Source: Cereibacter sphaeroides 2.4.1 (GTDB lineage Bacteria > Pseudomonadota > Alphaproteobacteria > Rhodobacterales > Rhodobacteraceae). Taken from it: 32,000 nt of DNA. Under the pieces are notes generated by a model. It made no database searches and was not told where the DNA came from. It saw nothing but the letters and a program-made list of their open reading frames with translations. This document shows positions 4,605 through 29,796 of the stretch, piece after piece. Position 1 is the first letter of the stretch; each line of letters opens with the position of its first letter. Position numbers and translations under genes: made by a program. The stretch is taken from NCBI RefSeq assembly GCF_000012905.2, contig NC_007493.2, positions 990,001 to 1,022,000 of the forward strand. The letters are read 5' to 3'.

Positions 4605-5615
4605 ATGACCATGGCCCTGTCCCCGTCCTCCAGCGAGAGCCCCGCGGGCGCCAGCCGCGGCAAGGCGCTCGCCGCAGCCGCGATCCGGCTCGGCGCGCTC
4701 GCCACCTTCGCGGCCATCATGGCCTATTTCGCCCTGACCGCGCGCGGCTTCGCCACGCCCTTCAACATCGTCAACGTGATCGAGCAATCGGCGATCCTCG
4801 GCATTCTCGCCTTCGGCATGTCGGTCGTCATCATCGGCGGCGGCTCGGAGGTGCAGACCGGCGGCATCGACCTGTCGCTGGCCGCCAATGCGGGCCTCTG
4901 CGCCGCGGTCTTCGCCACCGCGACCAACGCCGGCATGGCCGCGCCGGTGGCGATTGCGGCCACGCTCGGCACGGGGATGCTCGTGGGCGCAGTCAACGGC
5001 TTTGCCGTGGTGGGTCTCGGCATCCTGCCGCTTCTGGCGACCCTCGCCTCGATGAACATCGTGGCCGGCATCGAACTCACGCTGACCGAGAACACGGTCC
5101 TTTCGACCAGCTCGCCGCTGCTGAGCGTCCTCGCCTCGGGCCGCTTCCTCGGGATCTCGGCGCTGGCCTGGGTGCTGATCGCGGCCTCGGTGATCGTGGG
5201 GCTCGTGATCCACCGCACGCCGGTGGGCCTCCGGCTCTATGCGGTGGGCGGCCATCCCGAGGCCGCGCGCGCGGCGGGCCTCAACGTGGGTCTCCATGTC
5301 TGGGGCACCTATGTCTTCGCGGGCCTCTGCGCGGGATTGGCGGCCATCCTCATCGTCTCGCGCCTCTCGGCCTCGACGCCGGGGACGGGCGAGCTTCTGC
5401 TCTCGATCCTCGCCGCGGCGCTTCTCGGCACGGTCTTCTCGCGCCGCTTCGTGCCGACCGTGGGCGGCACCGTCCTGTCGGTGATCTTCATCGGCTTTCT
5501 CGCCAACGGCTTCCAGCTTCTGCATCTGTCGAGCTACTGGGTCTCGGGCGTGCAGGGCGCGCTGATCCTGCTGGTCGTCGCCGTCACCTCCTATGCCCGT
5601 CCGCAGGAGCACTGA
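4605..5615 (+). CDS. Sugar ABC transporter permease (RbsC-like)
   Basis: ATG 4605 abuts the ATPase stop (TGAATG). 336-aa polytopic hydrophobic protein of the BPD type 2 permease pattern. Confidence 0.9.
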   Translation: MTMALSPSSSESPAGASRGKALAAAAIRLGALATFAAIMAYFALTARGFATPFNIVNVIEQSAILGILAFGMSVVIIGGGSEVQTGGIDLSLAANAGLCAAVFATATNAGMAAPVAIAATLGTGMLVGAVNGFAVVGLGILPLLATLASMNIVAGIELTLTENTVLSTSSPLLSVLASGRFLGISALAWVLIAASVIVGLVIHRTPVGLRLYAVGGHPEAARAAGLNVGLHVWGTYVFAGLCAGLAAILIVSRLSASTPGTGELLLSILAAALLGTVFSRRFVPTVGGTVLSVIFIGFLANGFQLLHLSSYWVSGVQGALILLVVAVTSYARPQEH

Positions 5616-8572: not shown

Positions 8573-9991
8573 ATGCGCAACATCGACCGTTTCTTCATTG
8601 GCGGCGCCTGGACGGCCCCCCTCGGCACCGACCGGCACCGGCTGGTGAACCCGGCGACGGAGGAGGAGATCGCCGCGATCCCGATGGCCTCGACCGAGGA
8701 TGTCGACCGCGCCGTCACCGCGGCGCGCGCCGCCTTCGAGGGCTGGCAGGCCAGCTCGAAGGAGGAGCGTCTCCTCCTCCTCCGCCGTCTCCTCGATCTC
8801 TACAACGAGGCCTACGACGAGCTGGCCGAGCTCATGACCCGCGAGATGGGCACCGTCGCCCGCTTCAGTCGCGAGGCGCAGGCCTGGGTCGGGCGCGCCC
8901 ATTTGGAGGCCGCCATCGAGGCTCTCGAGGCCGAGAGCTTCGAGGAGATGCGCGGCTCGACCCTGATCTCGAAGGAGCCCATCGGCGTCTGCGCCCTCAT
9001 CACGCCGTGGAACTGGCCGATGAACCAGCTGGTCGTGAAGGTGGCCCCCGCCCTCGCCGCGGGCTGCACGGTGGTGGCGAAACCCTCGGAATTCTCGCCG
9101 CTCTCCTCGATCCGCTTCGCCGAACTGGTCGAGGCCGCGGGCTTTCCGCCGGGCGTCTACAACCACATCACCGGCGCAGGCCCCGTCGCGGGCGAGGCGC
9201 TGGCGCGGCACCCGGACGTGGACATGATCTCGATCACCGGCTCGACCCGCGCAGGGATCGCGGTGGCGCGCGCGGCCGCCGACACGGTCAAGCGCGTGAC
9301 GCAGGAGCTCGGCGGCAAGTCGGCCAACATCATCCTGCCCGATGCGGATCTGGCCACCGCCGTCCGGCAGGGGGTGCTCGACTGTTTCGGCAATGCGGGA
9401 CAGGCCTGCAAGGCGCCCGCGCGGATGCTGGTGCCGGCCGAGCGGATGGAGGAGGCCGCGGCCCTCGCAGGCGCGGCGGCCGAGGCGCTGACGGTGGGGG
9501 CGCCCGAGGGCGAGGTCGATCTCGGCCCCGTCGTGAACGAAAGCCAGTGGCGCCGCATCCAGTCGCTGATCGAGGCGGGCATCGCCGAGGGCGCGCGCCT
9601 CGTTACCGGGGGACCGGGCCGGCCCGACCATCTGCCGCGTGGCTGGTATGTGCGCCCGACCGTCTTTGCCGACGTGGCCCATGGCTCGACCATCGCCACC
9701 GAGGAGATCTTCGGCCCCGTCGTGGCCCTCATTCCCTACCGGGACGAGGAAGAGGCGGTCCGCATCGCCAATGACTCGATCTACGGGCTTGCGGGCTATA
9801 TCCAGACCGGCGACCCCGAGACGGCGCGGCGCATCGCGCGGAAGCTGCGCGTGGGCATGGTCTATATCAACGGCGCGGGCTGGGACGCGCGCGCGCCCTT
9901 CGGTGGCTACAAGCAATCGGGCAACGGGCGCGAACACGGCGCCTGGGGCCTCGCCGACTACCTCGAGACGAAAGCCACGGCCGGATTGTGA
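8573..9991 (+). CDS. NAD(P)-dependent aldehyde dehydrogenase
   Basis: Start set at ATG 8573 (MRNIDRFFIGGAW) with AGGAGG at 8561-8566. The product has ELGGKSA and FGNAGQACKA (catalytic Cys) motifs. 472 aa. Confidence 0.9.
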   Translation: MRNIDRFFIGGAWTAPLGTDRHRLVNPATEEEIAAIPMASTEDVDRAVTAARAAFEGWQASSKEERLLLLRRLLDLYNEAYDELAELMTREMGTVARFSREAQAWVGRAHLEAAIEALEAESFEEMRGSTLISKEPIGVCALITPWNWPMNQLVVKVAPALAAGCTVVAKPSEFSPLSSIRFAELVEAAGFPPGVYNHITGAGPVAGEALARHPDVDMISITGSTRAGIAVARAAADTVKRVTQELGGKSANIILPDADLATAVRQGVLDCFGNAGQACKAPARMLVPAERMEEAAALAGAAAEALTVGAPEGEVDLGPVVNESQWRRIQSLIEAGIAEGARLVTGGPGRPDHLPRGWYVRPTVFADVAHGSTIATEEIFGPVVALIPYRDEEEAVRIANDSIYGLAGYIQTGDPETARRIARKLRVGMVYINGAGWDARAPFGGYKQSGNGREHGAWGLADYLETKATAGL

Positions 9992-15786: not shown

Positions 15787-15873
15787 TCAGAAGATCAGCG
15801 CGAGAATGCCGATGATGACGAGCAGGCCGACGAGAAAGATGATGCCGACGGTGCCGCCGATGAACTTGAGCAT
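15787..15873 (-). CDS. 28-aa hydrophobic micro-protein (single predicted TM helix), not in the ORF track
   Basis: My translation of the minus strand gives MLKFIGGTVGIIFLVGLLVIIGILALIF*. A strong AAGGAGA Shine-Dalgarno lies 5 nt before the ATG, which starts 24 nt after the P450 stop. G/C-ending codons dominate, as in the neighbouring genes. Confidence 0.55.
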   Translation of the reverse strand: MLKFIGGTVGIIFLVGLLVIIGILALIF

Positions 15874-15897
15874 GGGAGTCTCCTTTCCGTTTGCGAC

Positions 15898-17220
15898 TCA
15901 ACCGTTGCGGGAAGCCTCTGTTCCCGCGCGTCGCGAGATCGCCGACAGGATCATGCCGCTGCGGGGCTGGGCCGGCATCCGGTTCAGCCGTACGCCCAGA
16001 TCCTGCGCGGGAACCTCGTAGTCCATCTCGCAGCAGAGGAGGCGGATGGCCTCCTTCATCAGCTCGACGGTGATCATCTCTCCCGGGCAGCGGTGGGTGC
16101 GGGCCACGTCCCCCGCGCCCTGGGGGATGAAGGCCTCGTCCTGTCCCGTCCAGCTCAGCATTCGCTCGGCGCGGAAGCGGGTGGGCTCGGGGAAGTGCCG
16201 CGGGTCGTGCGTCGTGCCGTAGAGATCGAGCAGAAGCCATTGACCTTCCGGGAAGTCGTAGCCCTCCCAAGTGATGGGCCGGGTGGTCACGGCGGCGGTG
16301 AAGGGAAAGAAGGGTGAGGCGCGGCGGACCTCCTCGGCGAAGTCGCCCGCCAGCTCCAGATTGCCCGACCGGAAGAGCTCGCGCCATGTCGTCTCGCGAT
16401 GCAGCGCCAGCGCCGCGAAGGTGATGTAGCGCCCCACGGCCACGATGGGACGGAGCAGGTTCAGAAGCTCCACCGCCGCGACGGACGGATCCAGCAGCGT
16501 GCCGTCCTCCTCGCGGTGGAAGGCAATCGCATGGAGGGCGGTCGCGGCCTCCGGAACCACTTCGCCGGCCCGAACCTCCTCCACGAGGGTGCGCAGGCGC
16601 TTCTCGGTGCCGGCGCGGCGCATCTGCGCCAGCCAGTTGCGCGGGCCGACGCTGCCCGCCTTGTCGATCATGTCGAAAATCTCGTCGGCGAGCTGCGCTT
16701 CGGGCTGGTGGGCGACCCCGGCCCAGCGGCAGCCCGCCCGGGTCAGAAGGCGCGCCGCCTCCTGCTGGAGGACGATCCTCCCCTCCGCTTCCCAGGCGGG
16801 CAGCCGTTCGCGCCATGCAAGGCGCATCTCGGACACCAGCGCCTCGACGCGGGCGGGATCCATGCAGATCGAGAGGAACAGCGCCTTCCGATGCCGATGG
16901 GCCGGACCCTCGAGCTGCTGCACCGAGCCCTTGTCCTGCAGGAGGTGCAGCACGGTCGAGGGCATCGCCCCCACGCGGGTAAGCCCCTCCGCGCCATAGA
17001 GCAGCCGCGCGGCCGCGCTGCCGCGCAGGCAGACGACCTCGCGCAGACGCAGGCGGGTCGCCACCGCGTCGCTGTCCATCCGGTCGCACAGGTTCGAGAC
17101 GAAGCGGTAGCCCTCGCTCATCAAGGCCATCGAGGCATCGATCCGCGGATCCCGCGGCATCTCCCGCAGGCTGGCGGGCGTGCCGGGCTCCTCTGGCCTG
17201 CGGCCCTCATCTGTTGTCAT
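15898..17220 (-). CDS. Cytochrome P450, CYP152-type fatty-acid peroxygenase
   Basis: 440 aa with the heme-thiolate loop FIPQGAGDVARTHRCPGE. The I-helix reads LLRPIVAV (an Arg-Pro pair in place of the usual acid-alcohol pair). As far as I recall the P450 BS-beta sequence, similarity runs over the whole length. GAGGA Shine-Dalgarno 7 nt before ATG 17220. Confidence 0.85.
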   Translation of the reverse strand: MTTDEGRRPEEPGTPASLREMPRDPRIDASMALMSEGYRFVSNLCDRMDSDAVATRLRLREVVCLRGSAAARLLYGAEGLTRVGAMPSTVLHLLQDKGSVQQLEGPAHRHRKALFLSICMDPARVEALVSEMRLAWRERLPAWEAEGRIVLQQEAARLLTRAGCRWAGVAHQPEAQLADEIFDMIDKAGSVGPRNWLAQMRRAGTEKRLRTLVEEVRAGEVVPEAATALHAIAFHREEDGTLLDPSVAAVELLNLLRPIVAVGRYITFAALALHRETTWRELFRSGNLELAGDFAEEVRRASPFFPFTAAVTTRPITWEGYDFPEGQWLLLDLYGTTHDPRHFPEPTRFRAERMLSWTGQDEAFIPQGAGDVARTHRCPGEMITVELMKEAIRLLCCEMDYEVPAQDLGVRLNRMPAQPRSGMILSAISRRAGTEASRNG

Positions 17221-17271
17221 GCGTGTATCCTCGCGTCTCCGGCGGCCCCGAGGGGCAGGGCCAGAATCTCA

Positions 17272-17301
17272 GAAGCTGGCCCCCGGACGGGGGCCAGCTT
17301 C
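17272..17301 (-). terminator. Strong hairpin after the katE/small-protein unit
   Basis: GAAGCTGGCCCCC-ggac-GGGGGCCAGCTTC forms a perfect 13-bp stem 30 nt downstream of the stop at 17331. On the minus strand the trailing sequence is TGAGATTCTGG, only a weak U-tract. Confidence 0.5.
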
Positions 17302-17330
17302 CAATGCTGCGCAGGTCGTCCGGGAGCCGC

Positions 17331-17585
17331 TCAATAGGTCGCGGGCGGATCGCTTGCCGGGAAGGACTCGTCCAGCGTCTCGTCCAGCCGGTCCCAATCG
17401 CGGGGCGGATCGCGCATCGCGTCGCGTCCCGCCTGCCGCACCTCGGGATAGTGGGTGCTGCGGCGGCCGCTCATCAGATGGCGCACCGCGAGCGCCCCGA
17501 AGGCGCCCAGCACCACCGCCGAGGTGAGCATCAGGGCCGAGCCGCGGCCCTGCCGCTCATGGGTCCCAGTTTTCGCATAAGCCAT
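17331..17585 (-). CDS. 84-aa small membrane-anchored protein with C-terminal ...DESFPASDPPATY motif
   Basis: Start set at ATG 17585 (MAYAKTGTHERQ...), 35 nt after the katE stop, with a purine-rich GAGAGAGGA upstream. It has one hydrophobic helix (ALMLTSAVVLGAFGALAV). The remainder of the 321-aa track ORF overlaps katE out of frame. Confidence 0.7.
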   Translation of the reverse strand: MAYAKTGTHERQGRGSALMLTSAVVLGAFGALAVRHLMSGRRSTHYPEVRQAGRDAMRDPPRDWDRLDETLDESFPASDPPATY

Positions 17586-17620
17586 TGTGGGTCCTCTCTC
17601 TTCATGCGCCCAAAGGGCTG

Positions 17621-19753
17621 TCACGGGGAAAACGTCCGGGCGAGGGGAGGGTTCCCGCCCAGCGTCGCCTCGCGCGGCCAGTGGCGCATCCCGCGGCAGG
17701 CCGCCACGAAACCGTCGATGTCGCTGCTCGAGCCGATCTCGATCCAACCCTCGTCCATCTTGGCCCCGAGCGCACAGGCCTCGATCAGCGGCCCCGCCCC
17801 ATGGTGGGCGATGAACTTGCAATGCGCATGCGCATCGGTGAGGAAGTCCTGCGCCGCCGGGTTGGCGGCTAGCATCGCCGCATCCGAGCCCGGCAGCACC
17901 GCCACCGCGTCGAAGATCACCGACGGGCCGCCGCCCAGCTTCTCGTCCGCCGGATGAAGCGTGCCCGCGCTGTCGGTGACGCCGCCTACGCGCGGGGCCA
18001 CGAGCTTCATCATCGCCCCCTCGGCCTGCAGGATCGAGCGCAGCTCGGTCAGCAGCTCGGCCTCGACGCCGTTGCCCGCCAGAACCCCGACGGTGCGGCC
18101 CGCAAAGTTCGGCGGCGGGTTCTTCAGCATGCTGAGCGCATCGGACGGCGGCAGGTCGGTGCGCGTCGGCCGTGCCGCGGGAGCGGGCTCGGGCATCTCG
18201 GTCAGGCCCAGCCCGTCGGCCACCGCCTGCGCCAGAGCGCCGTCGATGTTGAGGAGATGCGCGACGATCCGGGCGCGGATCTCGATCTCCTGACACTTCG
18301 ACAGTTCGAAGACCAGCGCATCGCGGATGTGACCCTGCTCGACCGGGGTCTGGCTCAGGAAGAACTGCCGCGCCTGGCTGTAATGGTCGGCGAAGCTCTC
18401 GGGCCGGAGCCTCCGCTTCTCGCCCTCGTTGCGCACGGCGTAGCTGACATAGCCCTCGAGCGGATGGGCCCGCGGGCCCTTGCCCCAGCCGTTCGGCTCG
18501 TAGTTCACCCGACCCTTGCGGTTCGAGGTCTGCATGTGCCCATCCTGCTGGAAATTGTGGACGGGGCAGCCACGCGGGGCGTTGATCGGCAGCTTGGTGA
18601 AGTTGGGGCTGCCCAGACGCTTGAGCTGGGTGTCGAGGTAGGAGAAGTTCCGTCCCTGCAGCAGCGGATCGTCGGTGAAGTCGATGCCGGGCACCACGTT
18701 CTGGGTGCAGAAGGCCACCTGCTCAGTCTCGGCGAAAAAGTTATCCACGACGCGGTCCAGCGTCAGCGTGCCGACGATGGTGAGGGGTACGAGCTCTTCC
18801 GGGATGATCTTGGTGGGATCGAGCACATCGAAGTCGAAGCGGTTCGCGAACTCTTCGTCGAAGATCTGCAGGCCCAGCTCCCATTCTGGGAAATCGCCGG
18901 CGGTGATCGCTTCCCAGAGGTCGCGGCGGTGCCGGTCGGGGTCGGCGCCGTTGATCTTCAGCGCCTCGTCCCACAGCACCGACTGCATGCCGAGCTTGGG
19001 CTTCCAGTGGAACTTGACGAAGCTCGACTGGCCTTCGGCATTGATGAAGCGGAAGGTGTGGACGCCGAAGCCCTCCATGAAGCGGAAGCTGCGGGGGATG
19101 GCACGATCCGACATCTGCCACATGACCATGTGCATCGACTCGGGCGTGAGCGAGATGAAATCCCAGAAATTGTCGTGCGCCGACTGGGCCTGAGGGAAGC
19201 CGCGGTCGGGCTCGGGCTTCACGGAATGGATGAGGTCCGGGAACTTGATCGCATCCTGAATGAAGAAGACCGGGATGTTGTTGCCGACGAGGTCCCAGTT
19301 GCCTTCATCGGTATAGAATTTCACCGCGAAGCCGCGCACGTCGCGGGCAAGGTCCACCGACCCCTTGGAGCCCGCCACCGTCGAGAAGCGGACGAAGGTC
19401 TCGGTGATCTTGCCTTCCTTCTGGAAGGGGGCGGCGCGGGTGATTTCGGGAATGGCCTTGGTGCATTCGAAGAGCCCGTGCGCGCCGAAGCCGCGGGCAT
19501 GGACCACGCGCTCCGGGATCCGCTCATGGTCGAAGTGGAAAATCTTTTCGCGGAGGATGAAATCCTCGAGCGCGGTCGGTCCCGGCGCGCCGCTCCTGAG
19601 CGAATTCTGGTTGTCGGCGATGGTGACGCCCTGGGCCGTCGTCAGACGCTCGTCCCCTTCGCCGGCGTGCTGGTGGAACTCGCCGCCCGCGCCGTAGTCC
19701 GACACGAGGTTTTCGAAACTGCCGGAACGGGCGGCAGGTTTGTCTTCGGCCAT
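17621..19753 (-). CDS. katE: Large-subunit monofunctional catalase HPII
   Basis: 710 aa with [15 protein letters not shown] and RFSTV catalase signatures and the C-terminal flavodoxin-like extension typical of HPII. AAGGAGA Shine-Dalgarno 6 nt upstream. Confidence 0.95.
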
Positions 19754-19791
19754 CTGGCTCTCCTTGACAGGGGGAACGGCTGGAGTCTGTG

Positions 19792-19819
19792 CGGGGCGCG
19801 TCTCATCCGGCGCGCCCCG
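19792..19819 (-). other. Hairpin in the 121-nt spacer between the secreted-protein gene and katE
   Basis: CGGGGCGCG-(10 nt)-CGCGCCCCG forms a 9-bp stem, extendable by two further pairs. There is no U-tract, so it may be an attenuator, a processing or stabilising element, or a weak terminator. Confidence 0.3.
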
Positions 19820-19874
19820 GCAGGATTGCGGCCCGGGCGAGGATCGACCGGGCCGCGATGGGCGTCGGGCGGCG

Positions 19875-20387
19875 TTACTGCGGCTTGAACGAGGTCACGA
19901 ACGAGCAGGCCTGCGTCCAGACCGAGGCATCGCCCGGAGAGGCGGGCGCGTCGGACGCGTTCGTCGTGTCCTCAGGAACCGGGGCCGGGGTATCCGTGCC
20001 GCCGAGATCCTCGCCGGTCGTCCCGGCCTCATCGGCATCCGGCGTCAGCGAGCCGCCGATGCCGCCGGACGAGGCGCCGCCCATGGAACCCGCGTCCATC
20101 AGATAGGCCTGACAATCGCGCACGGCGCGCTCCCTGGCCTCGGGGTCGAGCGCGGCCCACCGCTTTTCCATCTCGTCGGTCGCTCGGAGCGAAGTCATCG
20201 CCGCATCCTCGAAGAACACGTCGCGCACATCGTCGGACCAGGTCTGCTGGCTGATATCCTTGATGCTGCCCGTGCCGGTCTCGGGAGCTACCGGCCGGGT
20301 GGGATCCATCCCGTCCGCGCCGCTCTGTGCAAAGCCCGGGGCCGCGGCCAGGGCGAGGAGGCTCGCGGTGAAAGCAATCTTTCTCAT
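19875..20387 (-). CDS. Secreted acidic low-complexity protein, unknown function
   Basis: Start set at ATG 20387 ([23 protein letters not shown], a signal peptide) with GGAGAG 5 nt upstream. The mature part is Asp/Glu/Gly/Thr/Pro-rich with two Cys residues. I recognise no family. Confidence 0.7.
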
Positions 20388-20445
20388 CGACAGTCTCTCC
20401 ATTCGTGAACATCACCGGTCCCGCAGCGTGTGCGGGGTTGCGGAA

Positions 20446-20470
20446 GGAACGGCAGCGGCGGACGAATGTT
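20446..20470 (+). promoter_or_regulatory. Candidate ECF-type promoter on the opposite strand, overlapping the previous one
   Basis: The plus strand reads GGAAC(20446-20450)-N16-TGTT(20467-20470), directed toward mpg. Its -35 overlaps the minus-strand -10 and vice versa. Confidence 0.3.
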
Positions 20471-20472
20471 CC
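20448..20472 (-). promoter_or_regulatory. EcfG-type ECF sigma promoter, perfect consensus
   Basis: The minus strand reads GGAAC(20472-20468)-ATTCGTCCGCCGCTGC-CGTT(20451-20448), spacer 16 nt. It lies about 60 nt upstream of start codon 20387. Confidence 0.6.
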
Positions 20473-20520
20473 GGGAGGCGGATGTCACACCGGCGTCAGA
20501 CCGCGCAGGAAGGGGGGCAG

Positions 20521-21075
20521 ATGGAGGGGCAGGCAGCCTGTTTCGCGCGCGAGGCGCCCGCGGTGGCGGTCGATCTTCTGGGGGCGCATCTGCAGGTGCG
20601 CGGCGTGGGCGGACGGATCGTCGAGACGGAGGCCTATACGCCGGACGATCCGGCGTCGCACAGTTTCCGCGGACCCACCCCGCGCAATGCGGCGATGTTC
20701 GGGCCGCCGGGCTGCGCCTATGTCTATCTGTCCTACGGCATCCATCTCTGCCTCAACGTGGTCTGCGCGCCGGGCCATGCCGTGCTGATCCGCGCTCTGG
20801 AACCGACGGAGGGTCTGGCGCAGATGGCGGCCCGGCGCGGCACCGATGTCGCGCGGCTCCTCTGTTCCGGGCCGGGCCGGATCGGTCAGGCGCTGGGTCT
20901 GACACTGGCCGACGATGGCACCGCCTTCGGCACGCGGGGCTTTGCGGTGCGGTGGGGTGCGCCGGTGGCGGCAGGCGAGATCCTGTGCGGCCCGCGCATC
21001 GGCATCAGCCGGGCGGCGGACATGCCCTGGCGCTTCGGCCTGCGCGGCTCTCCCTGCCTCAGCCGCAGGTTCTGA
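20521..21075 (+). CDS. mpg: DNA-3-methyladenine glycosylase (Mpg/AAG family)
   Basis: The ETEAY motif, PASHSFRG and the [10 protein letters not shown] pattern are typical of the AAG family. ATG 20521 follows GGAAGGGGGG, giving a 184-aa product of the usual size. ATG 20482 is an alternative start. Confidence 0.8.
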
Positions 21076-21147
21076 GGCGGAACAATCCCGCCCGGCGGCT
21101 CTTGGAAGGAAGGGGCGCGCGCTGCGCCCGCAGGAGAGGAGGATGCG

Positions 21148-21309
21148 ATGACGAACGACCTGCAACTCGGCCCGAACGATCCGCCGGCTCCGGACCCGAT
21201 GCCCGAGCCGAATCCCTATCCCGATCCGATGCCCGACCCGGATCCTATCCCGCCCGGCGATCCGGACATGCCGAACCCGGGCGAGGAGACGCCCCCGATC
21301 TACAGCTGA
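21148..21309 (+). CDS. 53-aa Pro/Asp-rich micro-protein, not in the ORF track
   Basis: My translation gives MTNDLQLGPNDPPAPDPMPEPNPYPDPMPDPDPIPPGDPDMPNPGEETPPIYS*. GGAGAGGAGG Shine-Dalgarno 6 nt before the ATG, and the third codon positions are mostly G/C. A perfect terminator hairpin starts 30 nt after the stop. Confidence 0.55.
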   Translation: MTNDLQLGPNDPPAPDPMPEPNPYPDPMPDPDPIPPGDPDMPNPGEETPPIYS

Positions 21310-21333
21310 GGCATGCCGGAGGGTTGCGACATG

Positions 21334-21371
21334 AAAAAGGCTCCGGTCTGTGACCGGAGCCTTCTGCTTTT
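21334..21371. terminator. Bidirectional rho-independent terminator
   Basis: AAAAA-GGCTCCGGTC-tgt-GACCGGAGCC-TTCTGCTTTT forms a perfect 10-bp stem flanked by an A-run and a T-run. It lies between the convergent 21148-21309 (+) and 21382-22491 (-) genes. Confidence 0.75.
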
Positions 21372-21381
21372 CAGGACAGCC

Positions 21382-22491
21382 TCAGAAGCCCGAGCCTGCA
21401 ACCTTGGGGCCGGACGTGCCGGGACTCTTGGTCGTGGAGTCGGTCGAGCCCGTCGAGCCCGCGCCAGCCGAGGACATGCCGGTCGAGGATTTGTCCGCCT
21501 CCTTGCCGTGAAGCACGGGCTCCACCTGAGCCTTCGCCTCGCTGGCCGCCGCATCGGCGACGCGTCCCACCTTCGAGGCCAGCGTCTCGCCCTTCTCGGG
21601 CACCAGACCTTCGTCGCGCGCCGCGGCGATGGTGGCGTCGTAGGTCTCGCGCGCGGCCTTCATCGCCCGCTCGCGCAGCTCCCACGACGAAGCCTTCGCC
21701 TCGTCCCAGAGCTCGTCGCTGGTGCGGCCCATCCACTCGTCCTCGGTGCGCGTCCGGGGAAGCGCGGCCCCGATCACGGCGCCGAGCGCCACGGCCGCGG
21801 CACCCACGAGCAGGGGCTGCTGCTCCATGCCGTGGCTCATGCTGTCGCGCATCTGATGCGCGCCGTGGGACGCGCGGTCGCGCAGATGCCCGGCACGGTC
21901 GCGCAGATGCGCCGATCGCTCGCCGAGATCGTCGCGCCAGTGGCCGGCACGATCATAGGCATCCTCGCGCATCCGACCGGCGCGGTCGTAGACATCGTCG
22001 CGCAGGCTGCCCGCGCGGTCACGCGCGTCGCCGAAAGTTTCGGCCACCTTGTCCGTCGCGGAATGGGCCGCGCGGCTCACGCTGTCGGCAGCGTCGCTCA
22101 CCGCATGCTTGACGCGCGAGACCACGCCCTCGCCCCGGTCCGAACGATAGGAGGCGCCACCGCCGTAGGGCTCGTAGGACCGGCGGGCGGGGCCGTAGTC
22201 GCTCCGGTAATATTCTTCGCGGTCATAGGCGCTGACATGGCGCGAGCGGCTCGAGGAGCCGCCGAAGGCGAGCCACGCCAGACCCACCCCGATGAGGCCC
22301 AGAGCCACCGGATTGTCGCGCACCTGCCGGCCGGCGGAATGCATCACGCCCCGCAGATCCTCGACGCCCACGAAATTCGCGAGATCGTCGACGACCTGAT
22401 TGACGGACATCCGCTCCTTCAGCGCGTCGAGAGTGCTTTCGACTCGCGCGCGGTTCTCTTCCACTTCACGTTCGATCTTGTCGGCATTCAT
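21382..22491 (-). CDS. DUF3618-like membrane protein with internal 11-residue repeats
   Basis: Start ATG 22491 (MNADKIEREVEENRARVESTLDALKERMS, a DUF3618-like N-terminus) overlaps the upstream stop (TGATG). It has two hydrophobic helices (PVALGLIGVGLAWLAF and PLLVGAAAVALGAVIGAAL) and a Ser/Thr/Gly-rich tail. Confidence 0.8.
   Translation of the reverse strand: MNADKIEREVEENRARVESTLDALKERMSVNQVVDDLANFVGVEDLRGVMHSAGRQVRDNPVALGLIGVGLAWLAFGGSSSRSRHVSAYDREEYYRSDYGPARRSYEPYGGGASYRSDRGEGVVSRVKHAVSDAADSVSRAAHSATDKVAETFGDARDRAGSLRDDVYDRAGRMREDAYDRAGHWRDDLGERSAHLRDRAGHLRDRASHGAHQMRDSMSHGMEQQPLLVGAAAVALGAVIGAALPRTRTEDEWMGRTSDELWDEAKASSWELRERAMKAARETYDATIAAARDEGLVPEKGETLASKVGRVADAAASEAKAQVEPVLHGKEADKSSTGMSSAGAGSTGSTDSTTKSPGTSGPKVAGSGF
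21832..22032 (-). repeat. In-frame tandem repeats encoding (R/Y)DRAG-type 11-mer and 7-mer units
   Basis: Residues about 154-220 read RDRAGSLRDDVYDRAGRMREDAYDRAGHWRDDLGERSAHLRDRAGHLRDRASHG. The DRAG-like cores are spaced 11, 11, 11, 7 and 7 residues apart. Confidence 0.6.
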
Positions 22492-22892
22492 CAGATCTGC
22501 TCCCGTGCAAGCCGCACGTCGCGGCTGGTCTGTTCGATGGTGCGCTCCGGCACCAGATTGGCGGCGCTCATGTCCTTGCGGCCTCGGGCGATCAGCAGCC
22601 CGCCGATCACGGCCAGGACGGCGCCAACGATGAGGGCGGCCCAGGCAGGACCGACCCAATGGGCGAGGAGGACGACCAGCGCCTGCACCAGCACCAGAAG
22701 CGCCACGAGGAGGAGGATCCCCCCCGCAGCGATCATCTCGGCGCCGACGGCCATGCTGCGTCCGGCCTCGGCAACCTCCGCGCGGATCAGGCGGCTCTCG
22801 CTGCGCACGAGCCCGGTGACATCCCGCACGAGGTCGGACAGAAGATCGCCCAGCGAGCGATCCTCCGGCATACCGCGCTTAGGAGCCTCCAT
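22491..22892 (-). CDS. Holin-X / DUF1469 (Phage_holin_3_6)-like two-TM membrane protein
   Basis: Start set at ATG 22892 with GGGAGG 5 nt upstream. The 133-aa product has an amphipathic N-terminus (LGDLLSDLVRDVTGLVRSESRLIRAEV) followed by two TM helices. Its start overlaps the upstream gene by 14 nt and its stop overlaps the downstream start. Confidence 0.8.
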   Translation of the reverse strand: MEAPKRGMPEDRSLGDLLSDLVRDVTGLVRSESRLIRAEVAEAGRSMAVGAEMIAAGGILLLVALLVLVQALVVLLAHWVGPAWAALIVGAVLAVIGGLLIARGRKDMSAANLVPERTIEQTSRDVRLAREQI

Positions 22893-23703
22893 CTTTACCT
22901 CCCGACGTCGGGCCCGAGCCAAGGGGCTTCACGCTGGCGGCGGTGGGAGCCATCCCTGTGCTGCGGGCCGTGGCCTCGTTGGCGCTCCCGGGCCGAGGCG
23001 GCTCCGTGCCCGGCATCGCAGCGCCGCCCGGGGCGCTGAAGGGTGCGGCGCCGGGCCGACCGGCCATCGCGGGGCGGTTCTGGCCGCCGACATCGTGCGG
23101 CTTCGCGCCGAGAGGCTCGTGCGACGCGCGCTCGTGGGCAGAGCTGCCCGGGGCCGCACCGCGCCAGCGGTCGGCTCGCATCGCGTCGCCCTCATCCCAG
23201 TCGCGCCCACGCGGACGGTTCGACGAGGAGACGAGGAAGCGGCCGATGGCGAGGCCCGCGAACAAGGCGCCGCCCACGAAGAGCGCCGGGTTCTCGCGGC
23301 CGAAGCGCGCGACCGACCGGGTCATGTCTTCCGCCGAGCGGTGGCGCATCCGGTCCGCCATGTCGTCGAGCGTGTGGATCGCGCGATGGATCATCTGCGG
23401 CGGGGCAGGGGCATCGTCGCGCTTTTCCGCTTCCTCGGCACCCTTGCGCATCGACTGGGCGATGCCGTGGATGCTGTCGCACAGATCCTCCTTGCGGCGG
23501 TCCATCTCATCCAGCACGAGGCGCGAGACGCTGGAGCGAGCCCGGTTTGCCTCCTCGCGGGCACGGCCCGCGGCGCCGTGAAGACGCTCGCGGGCATCGT
23601 CCATCTCGCGGCGAGCGGCCTCTCGTGCGGTGTCGGTGAAGCCCGGACGGCCTGACGGATCCGAGGCTGTCCCCGAGCCGGTCATGTTCTTGTCGGTCTG
23701 CAT
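22879..23703 (-). CDS. ElaB/YqjD-like (DUF883-like) charged helical protein with one TM helix and a disordered Pro/Gly/Ala tail
   Basis: Start ATG 23703 (MQTDKNM...) follows GAGGAG 6 nt upstream. It has an Arg/Glu/Asp-rich N-terminal half, then ENPALFVGGALFAGLAIGRFL, then a low-complexity C-terminus. The family assignment is tentative. Confidence 0.7.
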   Translation of the reverse strand: MQTDKNMTGSGTASDPSGRPGFTDTAREAARREMDDARERLHGAAGRAREEANRARSSVSRLVLDEMDRRKEDLCDSIHGIAQSMRKGAEEAEKRDDAPAPPQMIHRAIHTLDDMADRMRHRSAEDMTRSVARFGRENPALFVGGALFAGLAIGRFLVSSSNRPRGRDWDEGDAMRADRWRGAAPGSSAHERASHEPLGAKPHDVGGQNRPAMAGRPGAAPFSAPGGAAMPGTEPPRPGSANEATARSTGMAPTAASVKPLGSGPTSGGKDGGS

Positions 23704-23771
23704 CCTGATCTCCTCGCATTTCTGCGGCCGGAGGCGCGCTCGGCGCCCGGTTCCGGCCTGTGTCGCCCAGA

Positions 23772-23797
23772 AACAGGCGCCGCCCGCCATTTGTTCC
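23772..23797 (-). promoter_or_regulatory. Candidate ECF (EcfG-type) promoter of the three-gene membrane operon
   Basis: The minus strand reads GGAAC(23797-23793)-N17-TGTT(23775-23772), about 70 nt upstream of ATG 23703. There is one mismatch in the -10 (T for C). Confidence 0.4.
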
Positions 23798-23845
23798 GCG
23801 CCTCCGGATGGGCTCGAAGGGCGTCGGGGACCGGCCTTCCGGATG

Positions 23846-23871
23846 GGAACCAACTCCCGCCGGATCCGGTT
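23846..23871 (+). promoter_or_regulatory. Candidate ECF (EcfG-type) promoter of the GSP26-like gene
   Basis: The plus strand reads GGAAC(23846-23850)-N17-GGTT(23868-23871), 35 nt upstream of ATG 23906. It is back-to-back with the 23772-23797 element, with 48 nt between the -35 boxes. Confidence 0.45.
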
Positions 23872-23905
23872 GCTTCGCCAACGCATTGCAGATCAGGAGG
23901 GCCGA

Positions 23906-24403
23906 ATGGCCGATACGAAACTTGCTCAGACCGATCCGAAGGCCGCGCTCTGGAAGCAGCTCGGCAAACTCCGCGCCGGGATGCTCGGCGTCGAGGGTTC
24001 GGGCCAGCACATGCAGCCGATGTCGCACCATTGCGACGAGGCGGCCGCGAAGCTCTGGTTCCTGACCAAGCGCAGCACCGACCTCTTCCGCGCCATCGGC
24101 CCGTCGAGCACGGCGCATTTCTGCATCATCGCGCATGACGAGGATTTTCATGCCTGCCTCTCCGGCCATATCGCCGAAGAGACGGATCGCGCGAAGCTGG
24201 ACGAGATGTGGAATCCCGTGGTCGCGGCCTGGTTCGAGGGCAAGGACGATCCCGACCTCGTGATGGTCTCGGTGAAGCTGCGCAGCGCGGCGATCTGGGC
24301 CTCGACCAGTTCGACCGCGCGCTTCGCCTACGAGATCGCCAAGGCCAATGTGACCGATAGCGATCCCGAGGTGGGCGTCCACAACGTCGTGACCTTCGCC
24401 TGA
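23906..24403 (+). CDS. General stress protein 26-like, pyridoxamine 5'-phosphate oxidase-fold protein
   Basis: ATG 23906 is preceded by AGGAGG at 23895-23900. The 165-aa sequence (...LWFLTKRSTDLF..., ...FEGKDDPDLVMVSVKL...) resembles the GSP26/PNPOx-like split-barrel family. Confidence 0.8.
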   Translation: MADTKLAQTDPKAALWKQLGKLRAGMLGVEGSGQHMQPMSHHCDEAAAKLWFLTKRSTDLFRAIGPSSTAHFCIIAHDEDFHACLSGHIAEETDRAKLDEMWNPVVAAWFEGKDDPDLVMVSVKLRSAAIWASTSSTARFAYEIAKANVTDSDPEVGVHNVVTFA

Positions 24404-24457
24404 TGCAGCGGCGGGCCCGCGCTGCGGAGGCTCGCCGCGAAAATTATGCCGCTCACG

Positions 24458-24483
24458 GGAACCGGCGCGCCAGAGCGCACGTT
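24458..24483 (+). promoter_or_regulatory. EcfG-type ECF sigma promoter, perfect consensus
   Basis: GGAAC(24458-24462)-CGGCGCGCCAGAGCGCA-CGTT(24480-24483), spacer 17 nt. It lies 24 nt upstream of ATG 24507, and the Shine-Dalgarno AGAGGGAGG falls in the short leader. Confidence 0.6.
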
Positions 24484-24506
24484 TAGCGGGCAAGAGGGAG
24501 GTTTAA

Positions 24507-24815
24507 ATGGCATATATGTTCGGAATCATCGTCTTCCTGGCCATGCTGGCTGTCTGCTGGTTCGGCTTCATGGCCGCGGAGCGTCAGGCGGGCCGCCTTC
24601 ACGCCGCGACCGCCCGGTCTCGCGACGCGGAGCCCGCGCACGGCGCAACGCCTTCGGCGCATCGGGATCAGTCGCCCGCCCCGGCGGCCCACCGGGATCA
24701 GGCTGCCGCCGCTCAGTCTTCCAGCGCGCAGCGGATCATGGAGGCGGACACGTCCACGAAAGCCGGTGAGTCCAAGGCCGGCTCTTCGGCCGCAGGGACG
24801 TCGAAAGAGGTCTGA
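24507..24815 (+). CDS. 102-aa membrane-anchored protein with disordered tail, unknown function
   Basis: It has an N-terminal TM helix (MAYMFGIIVFLAMLAVCWFGFMA) and an Ala/Ser/Pro/Gln-rich tail with a duplicated AHRDQ motif. Strong Shine-Dalgarno, a perfect ECF promoter upstream and a terminator hairpin 7 nt after the stop. Confidence 0.65.
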   Translation: MAYMFGIIVFLAMLAVCWFGFMAAERQAGRLHAATARSRDAEPAHGATPSAHRDQSPAPAAHRDQAAAAQSSSAQRIMEADTSTKAGESKAGSSAAGTSKEV

Positions 24816-24821
24816 CGGACC

Positions 24822-24849
24822 CGTGCCCGGCCCACATCCGGGCACGTTT
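24822..24849 (+). terminator. Hairpin terminator after the 102-aa gene
   Basis: CGTGCCCGG-cccacat-CCGGGCACG-TTT: a 9-bp perfect stem followed by a short T-run. Confidence 0.5.
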
Positions 24850-24880
24850 GCCCGGGCATATGCCCCATGCCCGGACAGTG

Positions 24881-24924
24881 CGGAGCGCAGCCTTCCCCCG
24901 GAGGCTGCGCTCCGGTCATTTTAA
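24881..24924 (+). terminator. Second, stronger rho-independent terminator in tandem
   Basis: CGGAGCGCAGCC-(10 nt with an inner TCC/GGA pairing)-GGCTGCGCTCCG forms a 12-bp perfect stem, followed by GTCATTTTAAG. Confidence 0.6.
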
Positions 24925-25220
24925 GACCATGAGGCGCGCGAAGGACTTGACGGAGAGCAGCCTGTCCGATGGCGGCCCCTCCGTCAAATGGCCGTGGCTC
25001 CTCCGCCGAACCTGCGCCCGCAGCCGGGATGCTGCAACGGACCGTTCCGTTACCCGAGATGAAGGGTTCTCGTGCGTCCCGAGGTGTGCGGTCCATGGAC
25101 CCTCCGGGCTCGCCCGGTAAGCCCCCCACAGGCGGGCCGGGCAGGCCTCTGCTCCGCCGGTTGGCGCGCCGCTTCGGGCCTGATACTCTGCGGGCCGTGA
25201 AGAGTTCGGGGGATGTGCCG

Positions 25221-25628
25221 GTGACGGAAGACGAAAACGATGGTGCGGTGGATGCAGGCCGAACCGAGAAGCTGGTGATGGTGGCGGCGCTCGGGGTGAT
25301 CGAGCGGGGGCTCCTGATCCTCGTGGCGCTCATGACCCTTGCGGCGACCTCGGTCGAGATCCTGTCCATCGTCGAACGCCGGAGCGTCAACCTCGGCGAC
25401 ATTCTGCTGATGTTCCTCTACACGGAGGTCATCGCCATGGTCGCGGTGTTCTACACCGGCAAGGGCCTGCCCTTCGTCTATCCGATCTTCATCGCGATCA
25501 CGGCGCTCGCGCGGCTGATCGTGCTGCAGGGCAAGGACATGGACCCCCAGAACATTGTGCTGGAAGCCTCGGCCATCCTGCTTCTTGCCATCGCCGCCGT
25601 CGTGCTGCTGCGCTTCGCGCGGCGATAG
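25221..25628 (+). CDS. psiE: Phosphate-starvation-inducible protein PsiE-family membrane protein
   Basis: The core FLYTEVIAMVAVFYTGKGLPFVYPIFIAITALARLIVLQGK matches the PsiE signature region as I recall it from E. coli. GTG 25221 lies 7 nt after GGGGGA and gives 135 aa, the usual PsiE size. The in-frame extension back to 24969 has visibly lower third-position G+C. The start is uncertain, with alternatives at 25278, 25095 and 25059. Confidence 0.75.
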   Translation: MTEDENDGAVDAGRTEKLVMVAALGVIERGLLILVALMTLAATSVEILSIVERRSVNLGDILLMFLYTEVIAMVAVFYTGKGLPFVYPIFIAITALARLIVLQGKDMDPQNIVLEASAILLLAIAAVVLLRFARR

Positions 25629-27843: not shown

Positions 27844-28025
27844 ATGCCTCTCCCGCCGGGCCTAGGGCCCGGTCTCATCTTGGTCGGTGTCTCGCGTCGA
27901 TTTCTCGTTCTGCCCAATTTAGGGGCGGCAGCCGCCTTATCAACGTTCACAGCCACCGCACGTTCGGGAACTGTCGCACGCATCGGCGCGCGGGCGCAAA
28001 TCAAACGGGGCAAATCGTCGCGCAT

Positions 28026-28668: not shown

Positions 28669-29796
28669 GTGACCCAGACCGCCGCCGTGGCCTTTCCGGC
28701 CGCGCCTCTCTACATCGGCTCCGAGATCTATCGCCGGTCGAGCTACGGTGGCAGGCATCCGCTGCGCGTGCCGCGGGTCTCGACCGTGACGGATCTCGGC
28801 CGCGCGCTCGGCTGGCTGCCGGCTGCCAGCTTCCGCACCGCGCCGCGGGCCAAGCCCGCCGCCCTCACCCTCTGGCACGATCCGGCCTATGTGGCGGCGT
28901 TGGCCGCGGCCGAGGCGGGGCTTGCCGCGCCCGAACTGCTGGCCGCCCACGGGCTCGGCACGCTCTCGAACCCGGTCTTTCCCGAGATGTTCCGCCGGCC
29001 CGCGACCGGCGCGGGGGGCGTCATGCTCGCGGCCGAACTGCTGCGCGGCGGCGGCGCGATCCATGTGCCGGGCGGAGGCACGCACCACGGGATGCGCGAC
29101 CGGGCGAACGGCTTCTGCTATCTGAACGACCCGGTGCTGGGGATGCTGGTCCTGCGCCGGATGGGGCTCCGGCGCATCGCCTATGTCGATATCGACGCCC
29201 ATCATCCCGACGGGGTGGAGGCGGCCTTCGCGGGCGATCCCGAGGTGCTCCTGATCTCGGTGCACGAGGAGGGGCGCTGGCCCTTCACCGGTGCGCTCGA
29301 GGACGAGGGCGGCGGCACCTGCTTCAACCTGCCGGTGCCGCGCGGGTTCAACGACACCGAGATGCGGGCGGTGCTCGAGGAGCTGATCCTGCCGCGGCTC
29401 GCCGCCTTCCGCCCCGAGGCTGTGGTGCTGCAATGCGGGGCCGATGCGCTGGAGGAGGATCCGCTGTCGCGGCTCTCCCTCTCGAACAACGCTCATTTCG
29501 AGGTGGTGGCGGCGCTGCGTCCGGTGGCGCCGCGCTTTCTCGTGCTGGGCGGCGGCGGCTACAACCCCTGGTCGGTCGGTCGCTGCTGGGCGGGCGTCTG
29601 GGCCACGCTGGCGGGCCACGAGATCCCCGACCGTCTGCCGGAGGCGGCGCGCGCGGTGCTGGCGGGCCTCGACTGGGGCGGGGGCGGGCGTCCTCCGCCG
29701 GCGCCCCCGCTGATCGAGACGCTGCGCGACGCGCCGCGGGAGGGGCCGGTGCGGCCGGAGATCCGGGAGAGGCTCGCCCGCCTCGCGCGGCGATGA
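28669..29796 (+). CDS. Histone deacetylase-family (AcuC/AphA-like) amidohydrolase
   Basis: GTG 28669 lies 10 nt after the gpx stop. The product has HHGMRDRANGFCYLND and DIDAHHPDG metal and active-site motifs. 375 aa. Confidence 0.85.
   Translation: MTQTAAVAFPAAPLYIGSEIYRRSSYGGRHPLRVPRVSTVTDLGRALGWLPAASFRTAPRAKPAALTLWHDPAYVAALAAAEAGLAAPELLAAHGLGTLSNPVFPEMFRRPATGAGGVMLAAELLRGGGAIHVPGGGTHHGMRDRANGFCYLNDPVLGMLVLRRMGLRRIAYVDIDAHHPDGVEAAFAGDPEVLLISVHEEGRWPFTGALEDEGGGTCFNLPVPRGFNDTEMRAVLEELILPRLAAFRPEAVVLQCGADALEEDPLSRLSLSNNAHFEVVAALRPVAPRFLVLGGGGYNPWSVGRCWAGVWATLAGHEIPDRLPEAARAVLAGLDWGGGGRPPPAPPLIETLRDAPREGPVRPEIRERLARLARR

Follow-up and report, generated by a model that had tools for sequence, protein, structure and literature searches.

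Conserved EcfG-type promoter motifs in a predicted general-stress gene cluster of Cereibacter sphaeroides 2.4.1 that includes the protein-Z gene puzA

Which regulator, if any, ties together the catalase, fatty-acid peroxygenase and small membrane-protein genes that lie side by side in a 32-kb stretch of the Cereibacter (Rhodobacter) sphaeroides 2.4.1 chromosome (hereafter the window)? A first-pass annotation had proposed that they are wired by promoters of the form GGAAC-N16/17-NGTT, the type recognised by EcfG, the ECF-type (extracytoplasmic function) sigma factor of the alphaproteobacterial general stress response. Enrichment and placement of the motif, its conservation, the existence of a cognate regulatory system in the species and the presence of the same motif at that system's phyR and nepR promoters all support this reading. 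We consider it likely that the roughly 9 kb between 15.8 and 24.8 kb of the window form a chromosomal cluster of general-stress-response genes, and that seven promoters in this cluster would, in all likelihood, be read by EcfG (RSP_1272), thereby wiring the stress genes. EcfG-type promoters are already known as a class, of which this cluster is a further instance; its value lies in naming first candidate targets of the little-understood PhyR-NepR-EcfG system of R. sphaeroides, with seven conserved candidate promoters that are ready reporters and through which the regulation of about ten uncharacterised genes can be approached. Unexpected is a predicted link, unreported and testable, from the stress response to protein-Z, a photosynthetic core complex component encoded by puzA.

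To quantify the motif, GGAAC-N16/17-NGTT was scanned as an exact pattern on both strands of the 32 kb, with 100 dinucleotide-preserving shuffles as control. There are eight matches against 0.53 +/- 0.78 in the shuffles, none of which (0/100) reached eight, and the GGAAC-N16/17-CGTT form occurs three times against 0.29 expected. The strict consensus of Sinorhizobium meliloti RpoE2, GGAAC-N18-19-TT, which lies 5-11 nt upstream of the start site (PMC3738161), has nine distinct sites, or ten raw matches, where Markov simulations average 2.4 raw matches, though one of the 60 simulations gave 11. As to placement, seven of the eight exact matches have a same-strand start codon 23-68 nt downstream of their end; given the 34 gene starts in the window, the probability of at least seven of eight under random placement is about 3e-10. 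Seven exact sites and one GGAAC-N16-TCTT variant fall between 15.9 and 24.5 kb, and all sites considered here are as follows.

15900-15924, minus strand: predicted EcfG-type promoter, GGAAC-N16-GGTT, 26 nt upstream of the ATG of a yohP-like gene and within the last codons of the CYP152 gene
17631-17655, minus strand: predicted EcfG-type promoter, GGAAC-N16-CGTT, 45 nt upstream of a gene for an 84-residue protein and within the 3' end of the catalase gene
20448-20472, minus strand: predicted EcfG-type promoter, GGAAC-N16-CGTT, 60 nt upstream of the likely ATG (20387) of a secreted-protein gene
20446-20470, plus strand: GGAAC-N16-TGTT, facing mpg, the mirror image of the preceding site
21079-21103, plus strand: variant site GGAAC-N16-TCTT (equal to GGAAC-N18-TT), from a one-mismatch scan, 44 nt upstream of a gene for a 53-residue protein
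23772-23797, minus strand: predicted EcfG-type promoter, GGAAC-N17-TGTT, 68 nt upstream of gA, kept in the sister species
23846-23871, plus strand: predicted EcfG-type promoter, GGAAC-N17-GGTT, 34 nt upstream of a Pyrid_ox_like gene, kept in the sister species
24458-24483, plus strand: predicted EcfG-type promoter, perfect GGAAC-N17-CGTT, 23 nt upstream of the puzA ATG
28969-28993, minus strand: exact match, GGAAC-N16-GGTT, antisense within a deacetylase-like gene

The first-pass annotation had listed five of these (20448-20472, 24458-24483, 23846-23871, 23772-23797 and 20446-20470), all of which are present where it placed them and on the same strands, but it overlooked two exact sites within the cluster, 15900-15924(-) and 17631-17655(-), and its list likewise lacks the one-mismatch site 21079-21103(+) and the exact match outside the cluster, 28969-28993(-). 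Its statement that the promoters of the sugar locus, selO, kbl-tdh, mtnA and gpx (the last being RSP_2389; PMC8920488) are free of the motif holds for exact matches. A one-mismatch form, CGAAC-N16-CGTT, does occur at 27942-27966(-), in the intergenic region between gpx and the NUDIX gene, whose start is about 98 nt downstream.

Promoter regions were aligned with their orthologs in Rhodobacter sp. NSM (where gB is 84% identical) and C. azotoformans for seven sites, those of the yohP-like gene, the 84-residue gene, the secreted-protein gene, the 53-residue gene, gA, the Pyrid_ox_like gene and puzA. At all seven, the three species agree fully (100%) in the eight box bases scored, namely GGAAC and the final three of the -10 box, whereas the spacers average 63% identity and the flanking non-coding DNA aligns poorly. 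A fourth lineage, represented by CP036419.1, keeps the puzA, Rsp_2384 (Pyrid_ox_like) and gA sites. Individual sites differ in how far the spacer has drifted. At 15900-15924 it is strongly different between species, and at the TCTT variant, which fits the strict S. meliloti RpoE2 consensus (PMC3738161), it has also diverged, the boxes of both being kept in all three species. The site at 20448-20472 retains GGAAC and GTT in the sister species, where its -10 box reads GGTT. The site at 17631-17655 is kept in both sister species together with much of its spacer, and its conservation is less informative because this spacer lies in the last codons of the catalase gene.

Four of the five sites in the first-pass annotation thus keep their boxes in both sister species; the fifth, the proposed promoter toward mpg at 20446-20470, does not withstand the comparison. 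Together with the overlapping minus-strand site it makes up a single 27-bp palindrome, GGAAC...GTTCC (20446-20472), and it is found in all C. sphaeroides strains but is absent from NSM and C. azotoformans. It exists because the -10 box of the minus-strand site reads CGTTCC in C. sphaeroides; in the sister species the corresponding sequence is GGTTC and the plus-strand GGAAC is gone. We therefore regard it as probably a non-functional by-product of its partner, and mpg has no conserved motif. The match at 28969-28993 is probably also due to chance or to coding constraint, as almost the whole 25-mer, spacer included, is conserved across species, GGTT is changed to GATT in the sister species and no downstream gene lies within 1.1 kb. 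An antisense start at this site, directed toward gpx, is the remaining alternative to coding constraint.

A motif of this kind presupposes a sigma factor to read it, and the search for phyR, nepR and ecfG elsewhere in the genome that the first-pass annotation had recommended is answered positively at the level of the species, which encodes PhyR, NepR, EcfG and a HisKA_2 kinase (in other strains, and PMC5830050). In R. sphaeroides 2.4.1 these are phyR (RSP_1274), a nepR-like gene (RSP_1273), ecfG (RSP_1272) and a kinase gene (RSP_1271), as reported by Li, Peng and Klug (PMC5830050), who found that RSP_1272 mRNA is induced by membrane stress in a PhyR-dependent manner; their study defines neither target genes nor a promoter motif. 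We reached the phyR locus via a published phyR primer, in sister species, and then via a PhyR homolog (C. sphaeroides loci L061-L070). It lies on the same chromosomes as the stress cluster (CM001161.1, CP033446.1 and CM125964.1) and reads csbD, HisKA_2 kinase gene, ECF sigma gene and nepR, followed by phyR in divergent orientation and then a crp-family gene. Each component is confirmed by Pfam, the domains of the ECF sigma factor being Sigma70_r2, PhyR_sigma2 and r4_2 (NSM orthologs included).

The 100-nt intergenic region between phyR and nepR contains two perfect copies of GGAAC-N16-CGTT, one for each gene, placed face to face with a 7-nt offset (4939-4963(+) and 4946-4970(-) in loci L063, L064, L067 and L070; 3920-3951 in L050). 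This pair is present in four Cereibacter lineages, C. sphaeroides, C. johrii, C. azotoformans and NSM, and csbD and a neighbouring gene for a 164-residue protein also carry the motif. Since such a pair at phyR/nepR is the expected signature of EcfG autoregulation, the local EcfG consensus can be equated with the motif of the window, and the PhyR-dependent rise of RSP_1272 on membrane stress (PMC5830050) fits autoregulatory motifs at this position.

The two motifs, for phyR and for nepR-ecfG, overlap by 18 bp on opposite strands (GGAACCGAACG...CGTTCGGTTCC), an arrangement in which simultaneous occupancy by two polymerases is impossible.

The association extends beyond Cereibacter. The motif also stands before homologs of the gA-gB-gC operon in Falsirhodobacter deserti, Pseudotabrizicola algicola, two metagenome-assembled genomes and Aureimonas jatrophae (loci L056, L057, L059 and L060, and, as CGAAC, L058, which is one of the metagenome-assembled genomes). 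In two of these loci from other genera an ecfG-like sigma gene lies within 10 kb and itself has the motif upstream, and the P. algicola locus (L057) also has calls for nepR and an HWE kinase gene. This recurrence of the motif before the same operon, with an ecfG-like gene nearby in two loci, argues for EcfG as the cognate sigma factor.

Two of these 20-kb loci, L057 and L058, have 12 and 9 exact motif matches per 20 kb, located around the ecfG-like sigma genes and mostly upstream of small open reading frames or of PRC-barrel, DUF892, DUF378, DUF3008 and SDR genes, so that general-stress genes are packed more densely there than in the window. In A. jatrophae (L059, about 8980-9055) an uncalled 24-residue hydrophobic open reading frame (MHNIIYLIGLIVVVLAILSFLGLR) sits between the EcfG motif and gA. 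Its likeness, in length and hydrophobicity, to the window's YohP-like peptide suggests that very small membrane peptides are a recurring feature of these putative stress operons.

The genes of the cluster and its right-hand neighbour are as follows.

15787-15873, minus strand: YohP-family small membrane protein, 28 residues (Pfam PF25659, E = 3e-12), with a gene call in several assemblies
15898-17220, minus strand: CYP152-family fatty-acid peroxygenase, a cytochrome P450 (PDB 1IZO, E = 2e-102)
17331-17585, minus strand: 84-residue protein with a single hydrophobic segment or helix and no family match
17621-19753, minus strand: HPII-type large-subunit catalase (Pfam and NCBIfam matches)
19875-20387, or to 20402, minus strand: acidic secreted protein with a signal-peptide-like N-terminus, of 170 residues (ATG 20387) or 175 residues (ATG 20402)
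20521-21075, plus strand: mpg, 3-methyladenine DNA glycosylase (family matches)
21148-21309, plus strand: 53-residue proline- and aspartate-rich protein, with a gene call in all assemblies
21382-23703, minus strand: membrane-protein operon gA-gB-gC, three genes with overlapping ends
23906-24403, plus strand: pyridoxamine-5'-phosphate-oxidase-like protein (Pyrid_ox_like) of the general stress protein 26 (GSP26) type (Pfam PF16242, E = 1e-36)
24507-24815, plus strand: puzA, 102 residues
25215-25628, plus strand: PsiE-like protein (psiE)

Some of these assignments need qualification. The peroxygenase scores 429 bits against NCBIfam CypC, under the family cut-off of 600, and the catalase 905 bits against NCBIfam HPII, under the cut-off of 1102; the catalase gene is probably katC (RSP_2380), a name taken over from PMC8920488. 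The Pyrid_ox_like gene is probably Rsp_2384, given that its position relative to puzA is as described (PMC8652583). For the secreted-protein gene ATG 20387 is the likelier start because it has a conserved ribosome-binding site, GGAGAG. The products of the operon are gA, of 274 residues and no family, gB, of 133 residues and with a Phage_holin_3_6 match, and gC, of 369 residues and with a DUF3618 match; one database homolog of gB carries the source name YqjE. In some assemblies gA is called as a 303-residue protein whose start, 23790, lies inside the predicted promoter; the start at 23703 (274 residues) is likelier because of a conserved GAGGAG ribosome-binding site.

That the gene content parallels known EcfG regulons (PMC6599016, PMC8226930) is a further reason for reading the motif as an EcfG promoter. 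The S. meliloti RpoE2 regulon is alike in promoter architecture, in having an HPII-type catalase among its members (RpoE2 controls katC; PMC8226930), in its many small proteins of unknown function and in its control by PhyR and NepR. It differs in that the catalase of the window lacks a motif of its own, that the targets predicted here lie in one 9-kb cluster and that one of them is a subunit of a photosynthetic complex. In Sphingomonas melonis Fr1 the EcfG regulon includes catalases, GSP26, PRC-barrel and small secreted proteins, with the motif within 100 bp of the coding sequence (PMC6599016). Both the enrichment of GGAAC-N-GTT near coding sequence and the types of target are thus similar, but the regulon of S. 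melonis was defined by transcriptomics of an ecfG mutant and that of the window is predicted. The RSP_1271-1274 locus of R. sphaeroides belongs to the same organism and is the proposed regulator of this cluster.

Likenesses can also be found outside the EcfG systems. In Escherichia coli, yqjD/elaB, yqjE and yohP, which encode small membrane stress proteins of the sigma-S response, are induced by stress or in stationary phase, and they have counterparts here in gB (Phage_holin_3_6, with its YqjE-named homolog) and in the 28-residue YohP-family protein; the sigma factor is RpoS there and an ECF sigma factor here, and the promoter type differs. The RpoE-ChrR and RpoHI/RpoHII regulons of R. sphaeroides share the organism and overlapping stress themes with the cluster, and gpx is in the window, but their promoter consensus sequences differ from GGAAC-N16/17-CGTT.

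By analogy with other Alphaproteobacteria, NepR (RSP_1273) would hold EcfG in the absence of stress. Stress-sensing HWE/HisKA_2 kinases would then phosphorylate PhyR (RSP_1274), phosphorylated PhyR would sequester NepR, and the freed EcfG would bring RNA polymerase to GGAAC-N16/17-(N)GTT promoters, with transcription expected to start about 5-11 nt downstream of the -10 box. This partner switch is established elsewhere (PMC5830050, background; PMC6599016), as is the start distance of 5-11 nt (PMC3738161). The units predicted to respond are the 28-residue yohP-like gene, the 84-residue membrane-protein gene, the secreted-protein gene (possibly continuing into katC), the 53-residue proline-rich gene (with its TCTT -10 box), gA-gB-gC, the GSP26-like Rsp_2384 and puzA. 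Most of the predicted products are small membrane or envelope proteins, in keeping with the phyR mutant's membrane-stress phenotype.

What, then, is the gene at ATG 24507? It can be identified as puzA, which encodes protein-Z (PufZ) of the dimeric core complex RC-LH1 (reaction centre-light harvesting 1). Residues 1-31 of the product are identical (31/31) to the PufZ chain of PDB 7PQD, its length of 102 residues and computed mass of 10,564 Da equal the values published for protein-Z (Qian et al. 2021, PMC8652583), and its C-terminal 23-mer, ADT...KEV, is the peptide detected by mass spectrometry in the same study. It has one N-terminal transmembrane helix. On chromosome 1 of strain 2.4.1, puzA has the coordinates 1,014,511-1,014,819. 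The gene lies between the Pyrid_ox_like gene and psiE, and puzA is described as lying between Rsp_2384 and Rsp_6224; the spurious open reading frame of 120 residues that some assemblies call opposite to it recalls the misannotation of puzA as Rsp_2385, a 120-residue frame on the other strand (PMC8652583). A homolog search found PuzA in Cereibacter only.

The only recognisable promoter of puzA is the conserved perfect EcfG-type motif at 24458-24483, one of the two perfect CGTT sites in the first-pass annotation. NSM, C. azotoformans (where the spacer is N16) and the CP036419.1 lineage all retain it, although the spacers have diverged and the proteins are only 52-62% identical, and a crude pattern scan found no PpsR- or FnrL-like sites near the gene. 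If so controlled, protein-Z would be made on stress or stationary-phase signals, outside the photosynthesis regulon. Such a promoter may explain why only some preparations show protein-Z. Dimers in which it was seen came from a strain lacking LH2, grown in semi-aerobic dark cultures harvested at an optical density of 1.6 (Qian et al., PMC8652583), whereas in dimers from the anoxic phototrophic wild type its density was too weak to establish its presence, which was ascribed to growth conditions (Cao et al., PMC9007983). Deletion of puzA leaves dimers able to form, with slightly lower dimer activity (PMC11346425), and the role of the protein has been called uncertain (PMC10214105); the papers on protein-Z make no mention of stress, sigma factors or promoters. 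It is possible, and we put it forward only tentatively, that the general stress response remodels the photosynthetic core complex, EcfG-dependent PuzA being made under stress, in semi-aerobic conditions or in stationary phase and docking onto RC-LH1 dimers. A stress-sigma promoter in front of puzA makes the discrepancy between laboratories open to a simple experiment and, if the proposal is true, protein-Z would be the first physiological output of the Rhodobacter PhyR-NepR-EcfG system in the photosynthetic membrane.

Several points weigh against EcfG as the reader of these promoters. The use of this sigma factor, the start positions and the inducing conditions are inferred, from evidence that is computational throughout. 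Many ECF groups share GGAAC- or GAAC-like -35 boxes and CGT-like -10 boxes, which makes the assignment to EcfG an indirect one. The catalase, the most 'typical' EcfG target of the cluster, has no EcfG motif upstream at zero or one mismatch; the sites at 17631 and 15900 sit in coding sequence, and coding constraint contributes to the conservation of the former; and the sequence of the phyR locus comes from C. sphaeroides strains other than that of the window's assembly. Deletion of phyR, moreover, had an effect under membrane and UV stress but none under oxidative, heat or salt stress (PMC5830050), and in the laboratory the regulon may be redundant or weakly induced. Text searches for RSP_1272, RSP_2380 and RSP_2379-2385 found no regulon or expression data. 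In the chief competing explanation the promoters are real but are read by another C. sphaeroides ECF sigma factor of similar -35 AAC and -10 CGT specificity. Boxes of this kind are common to many ECF groups. Further ECF-type sigma factors of unknown role exist in the organism, RSP_2681 for example, and the phyR mutant lacks general-stress phenotypes (PMC5830050). Yet the phyR and nepR-ecfG promoters hold an identical motif in duplicate, which marks EcfG autoregulation, the gene content matches that of EcfG regulons elsewhere (PMC6599016, PMC8226930), and in other genera the homologous operon carries this motif too and adjoins ecfG (and, in one locus, nepR and an HWE kinase gene), so that we give this explanation only a slim chance.

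Much less credible is the idea that the copies arose by chance, or as by-products of coding sequence or high GC content, and have no regulatory role. Two sites do overlap coding sequence, the site facing mpg and the 28969 match look like by-products, and up to about one chance match per window is expected, but eight matches against 0.53, a placement probability of about 3e-10, boxes that stay invariant in three or four lineages as spacers drift, and the motif in front of a homologous operon in distant genera make it very improbable. Least probable of all, to the point of being barely credible, is that a dimeric transcription factor binds the element as an inverted repeat, GGAAC...GTTCC, and that it is no promoter; 20446-20472 and the phyR/nepR sites are indeed palindromic, but five of the seven conserved sites are not, all of them face a gene at a promoter-like distance, and the palindromes are explained by two divergent promoters in the case of phyR/nepR and by a CGTTCC -10 box in the other. 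For puzA a separate question arises, namely whether its expression is mainly constitutive, or comes from Rsp_2384 read-through or from photosynthesis regulators, with a minor part for the EcfG-type site and with strain or purification as the source of the variable protein-Z. In favour of this, the same strand carries Rsp_2384 only 103 nt upstream, a strain without LH2 did contain protein-Z (PMC8652583) and the effect of deleting puzA is slight (PMC11346425). Set against it, no PpsR- or FnrL-like site lies near puzA and a scan of the region detected no sigma-70-like promoter, four lineages retain the perfect motif despite 52-62% protein identity, and Rsp_2384 is itself behind an EcfG-type site, so that even read-through would still depend on EcfG. 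We consider this view of puzA unlikely.

How would the genes without a conserved motif of their own be transcribed if EcfG serves the cluster? The first-pass annotation had placed the secreted-protein gene and the catalase (its katE) in one unit, of which the motif upstream of the secreted-protein gene stands but a motif for the catalase itself is lacking; among the three species nothing is conserved in the 120 nt upstream of the catalase except the ribosome-binding site. Lacking its own motif, the catalase could be reached only via read-through from the secreted-protein gene. No intrinsic terminator is called between the two genes, and read-through from the putative promoter at 20448-20472 is plausible. 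Neither the P450 gene (in C. sphaeroides) nor psiE has a motif upstream, and psiE is separated from puzA by a strong intrinsic terminator at 24881-24914(+) that is conserved in the sister species. A sigma-70 promoter scan gave no sites in 15.5-26 kb, and crude RpoH-like, PpsR (TGT-N12-ACA) and FnrL patterns had no relevant match close to the cluster, the one weak RpoH-like match in the region being inside the catalase gene.

The P450 gene of C. azotoformans has a perfect GGAAC-N16-CGTT of its own (15692-15716 in L055), of which NSM keeps only the GGAAC. The CYP152 peroxygenase, an H2O2-using enzyme, stands in the same gene string as the HPII catalase.

The cluster is chromosomal. We rejected a mobile island, since GC content, at 0.65-0.71, is like that of the flanks and C. 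azotoformans and Rhodobacter sp. NSM share the gene order; the window contains no tRNA genes, there is no integrase or transposase among its Pfam hits, and an Rfam search of it gave no hits. One window protein that was searched has identical copies in many C. sphaeroides genomes, and at the nucleotide level the window matches CP015287.1 (C. sphaeroides chromosome 1) with 100% identity over 19.5 kb and seven other C. sphaeroides strains with 96.4-98.1%. Strains vary at 21329-21391, between the stop codons of gC and the 53-residue gene, by a 119-bp insertion that is absent from the window strain and KD131 and present in six of the seven other C. sphaeroides assemblies compared. The insertion includes a second copy, of about 63 bp, of the sequence around the bidirectional terminator at 21337-21363.

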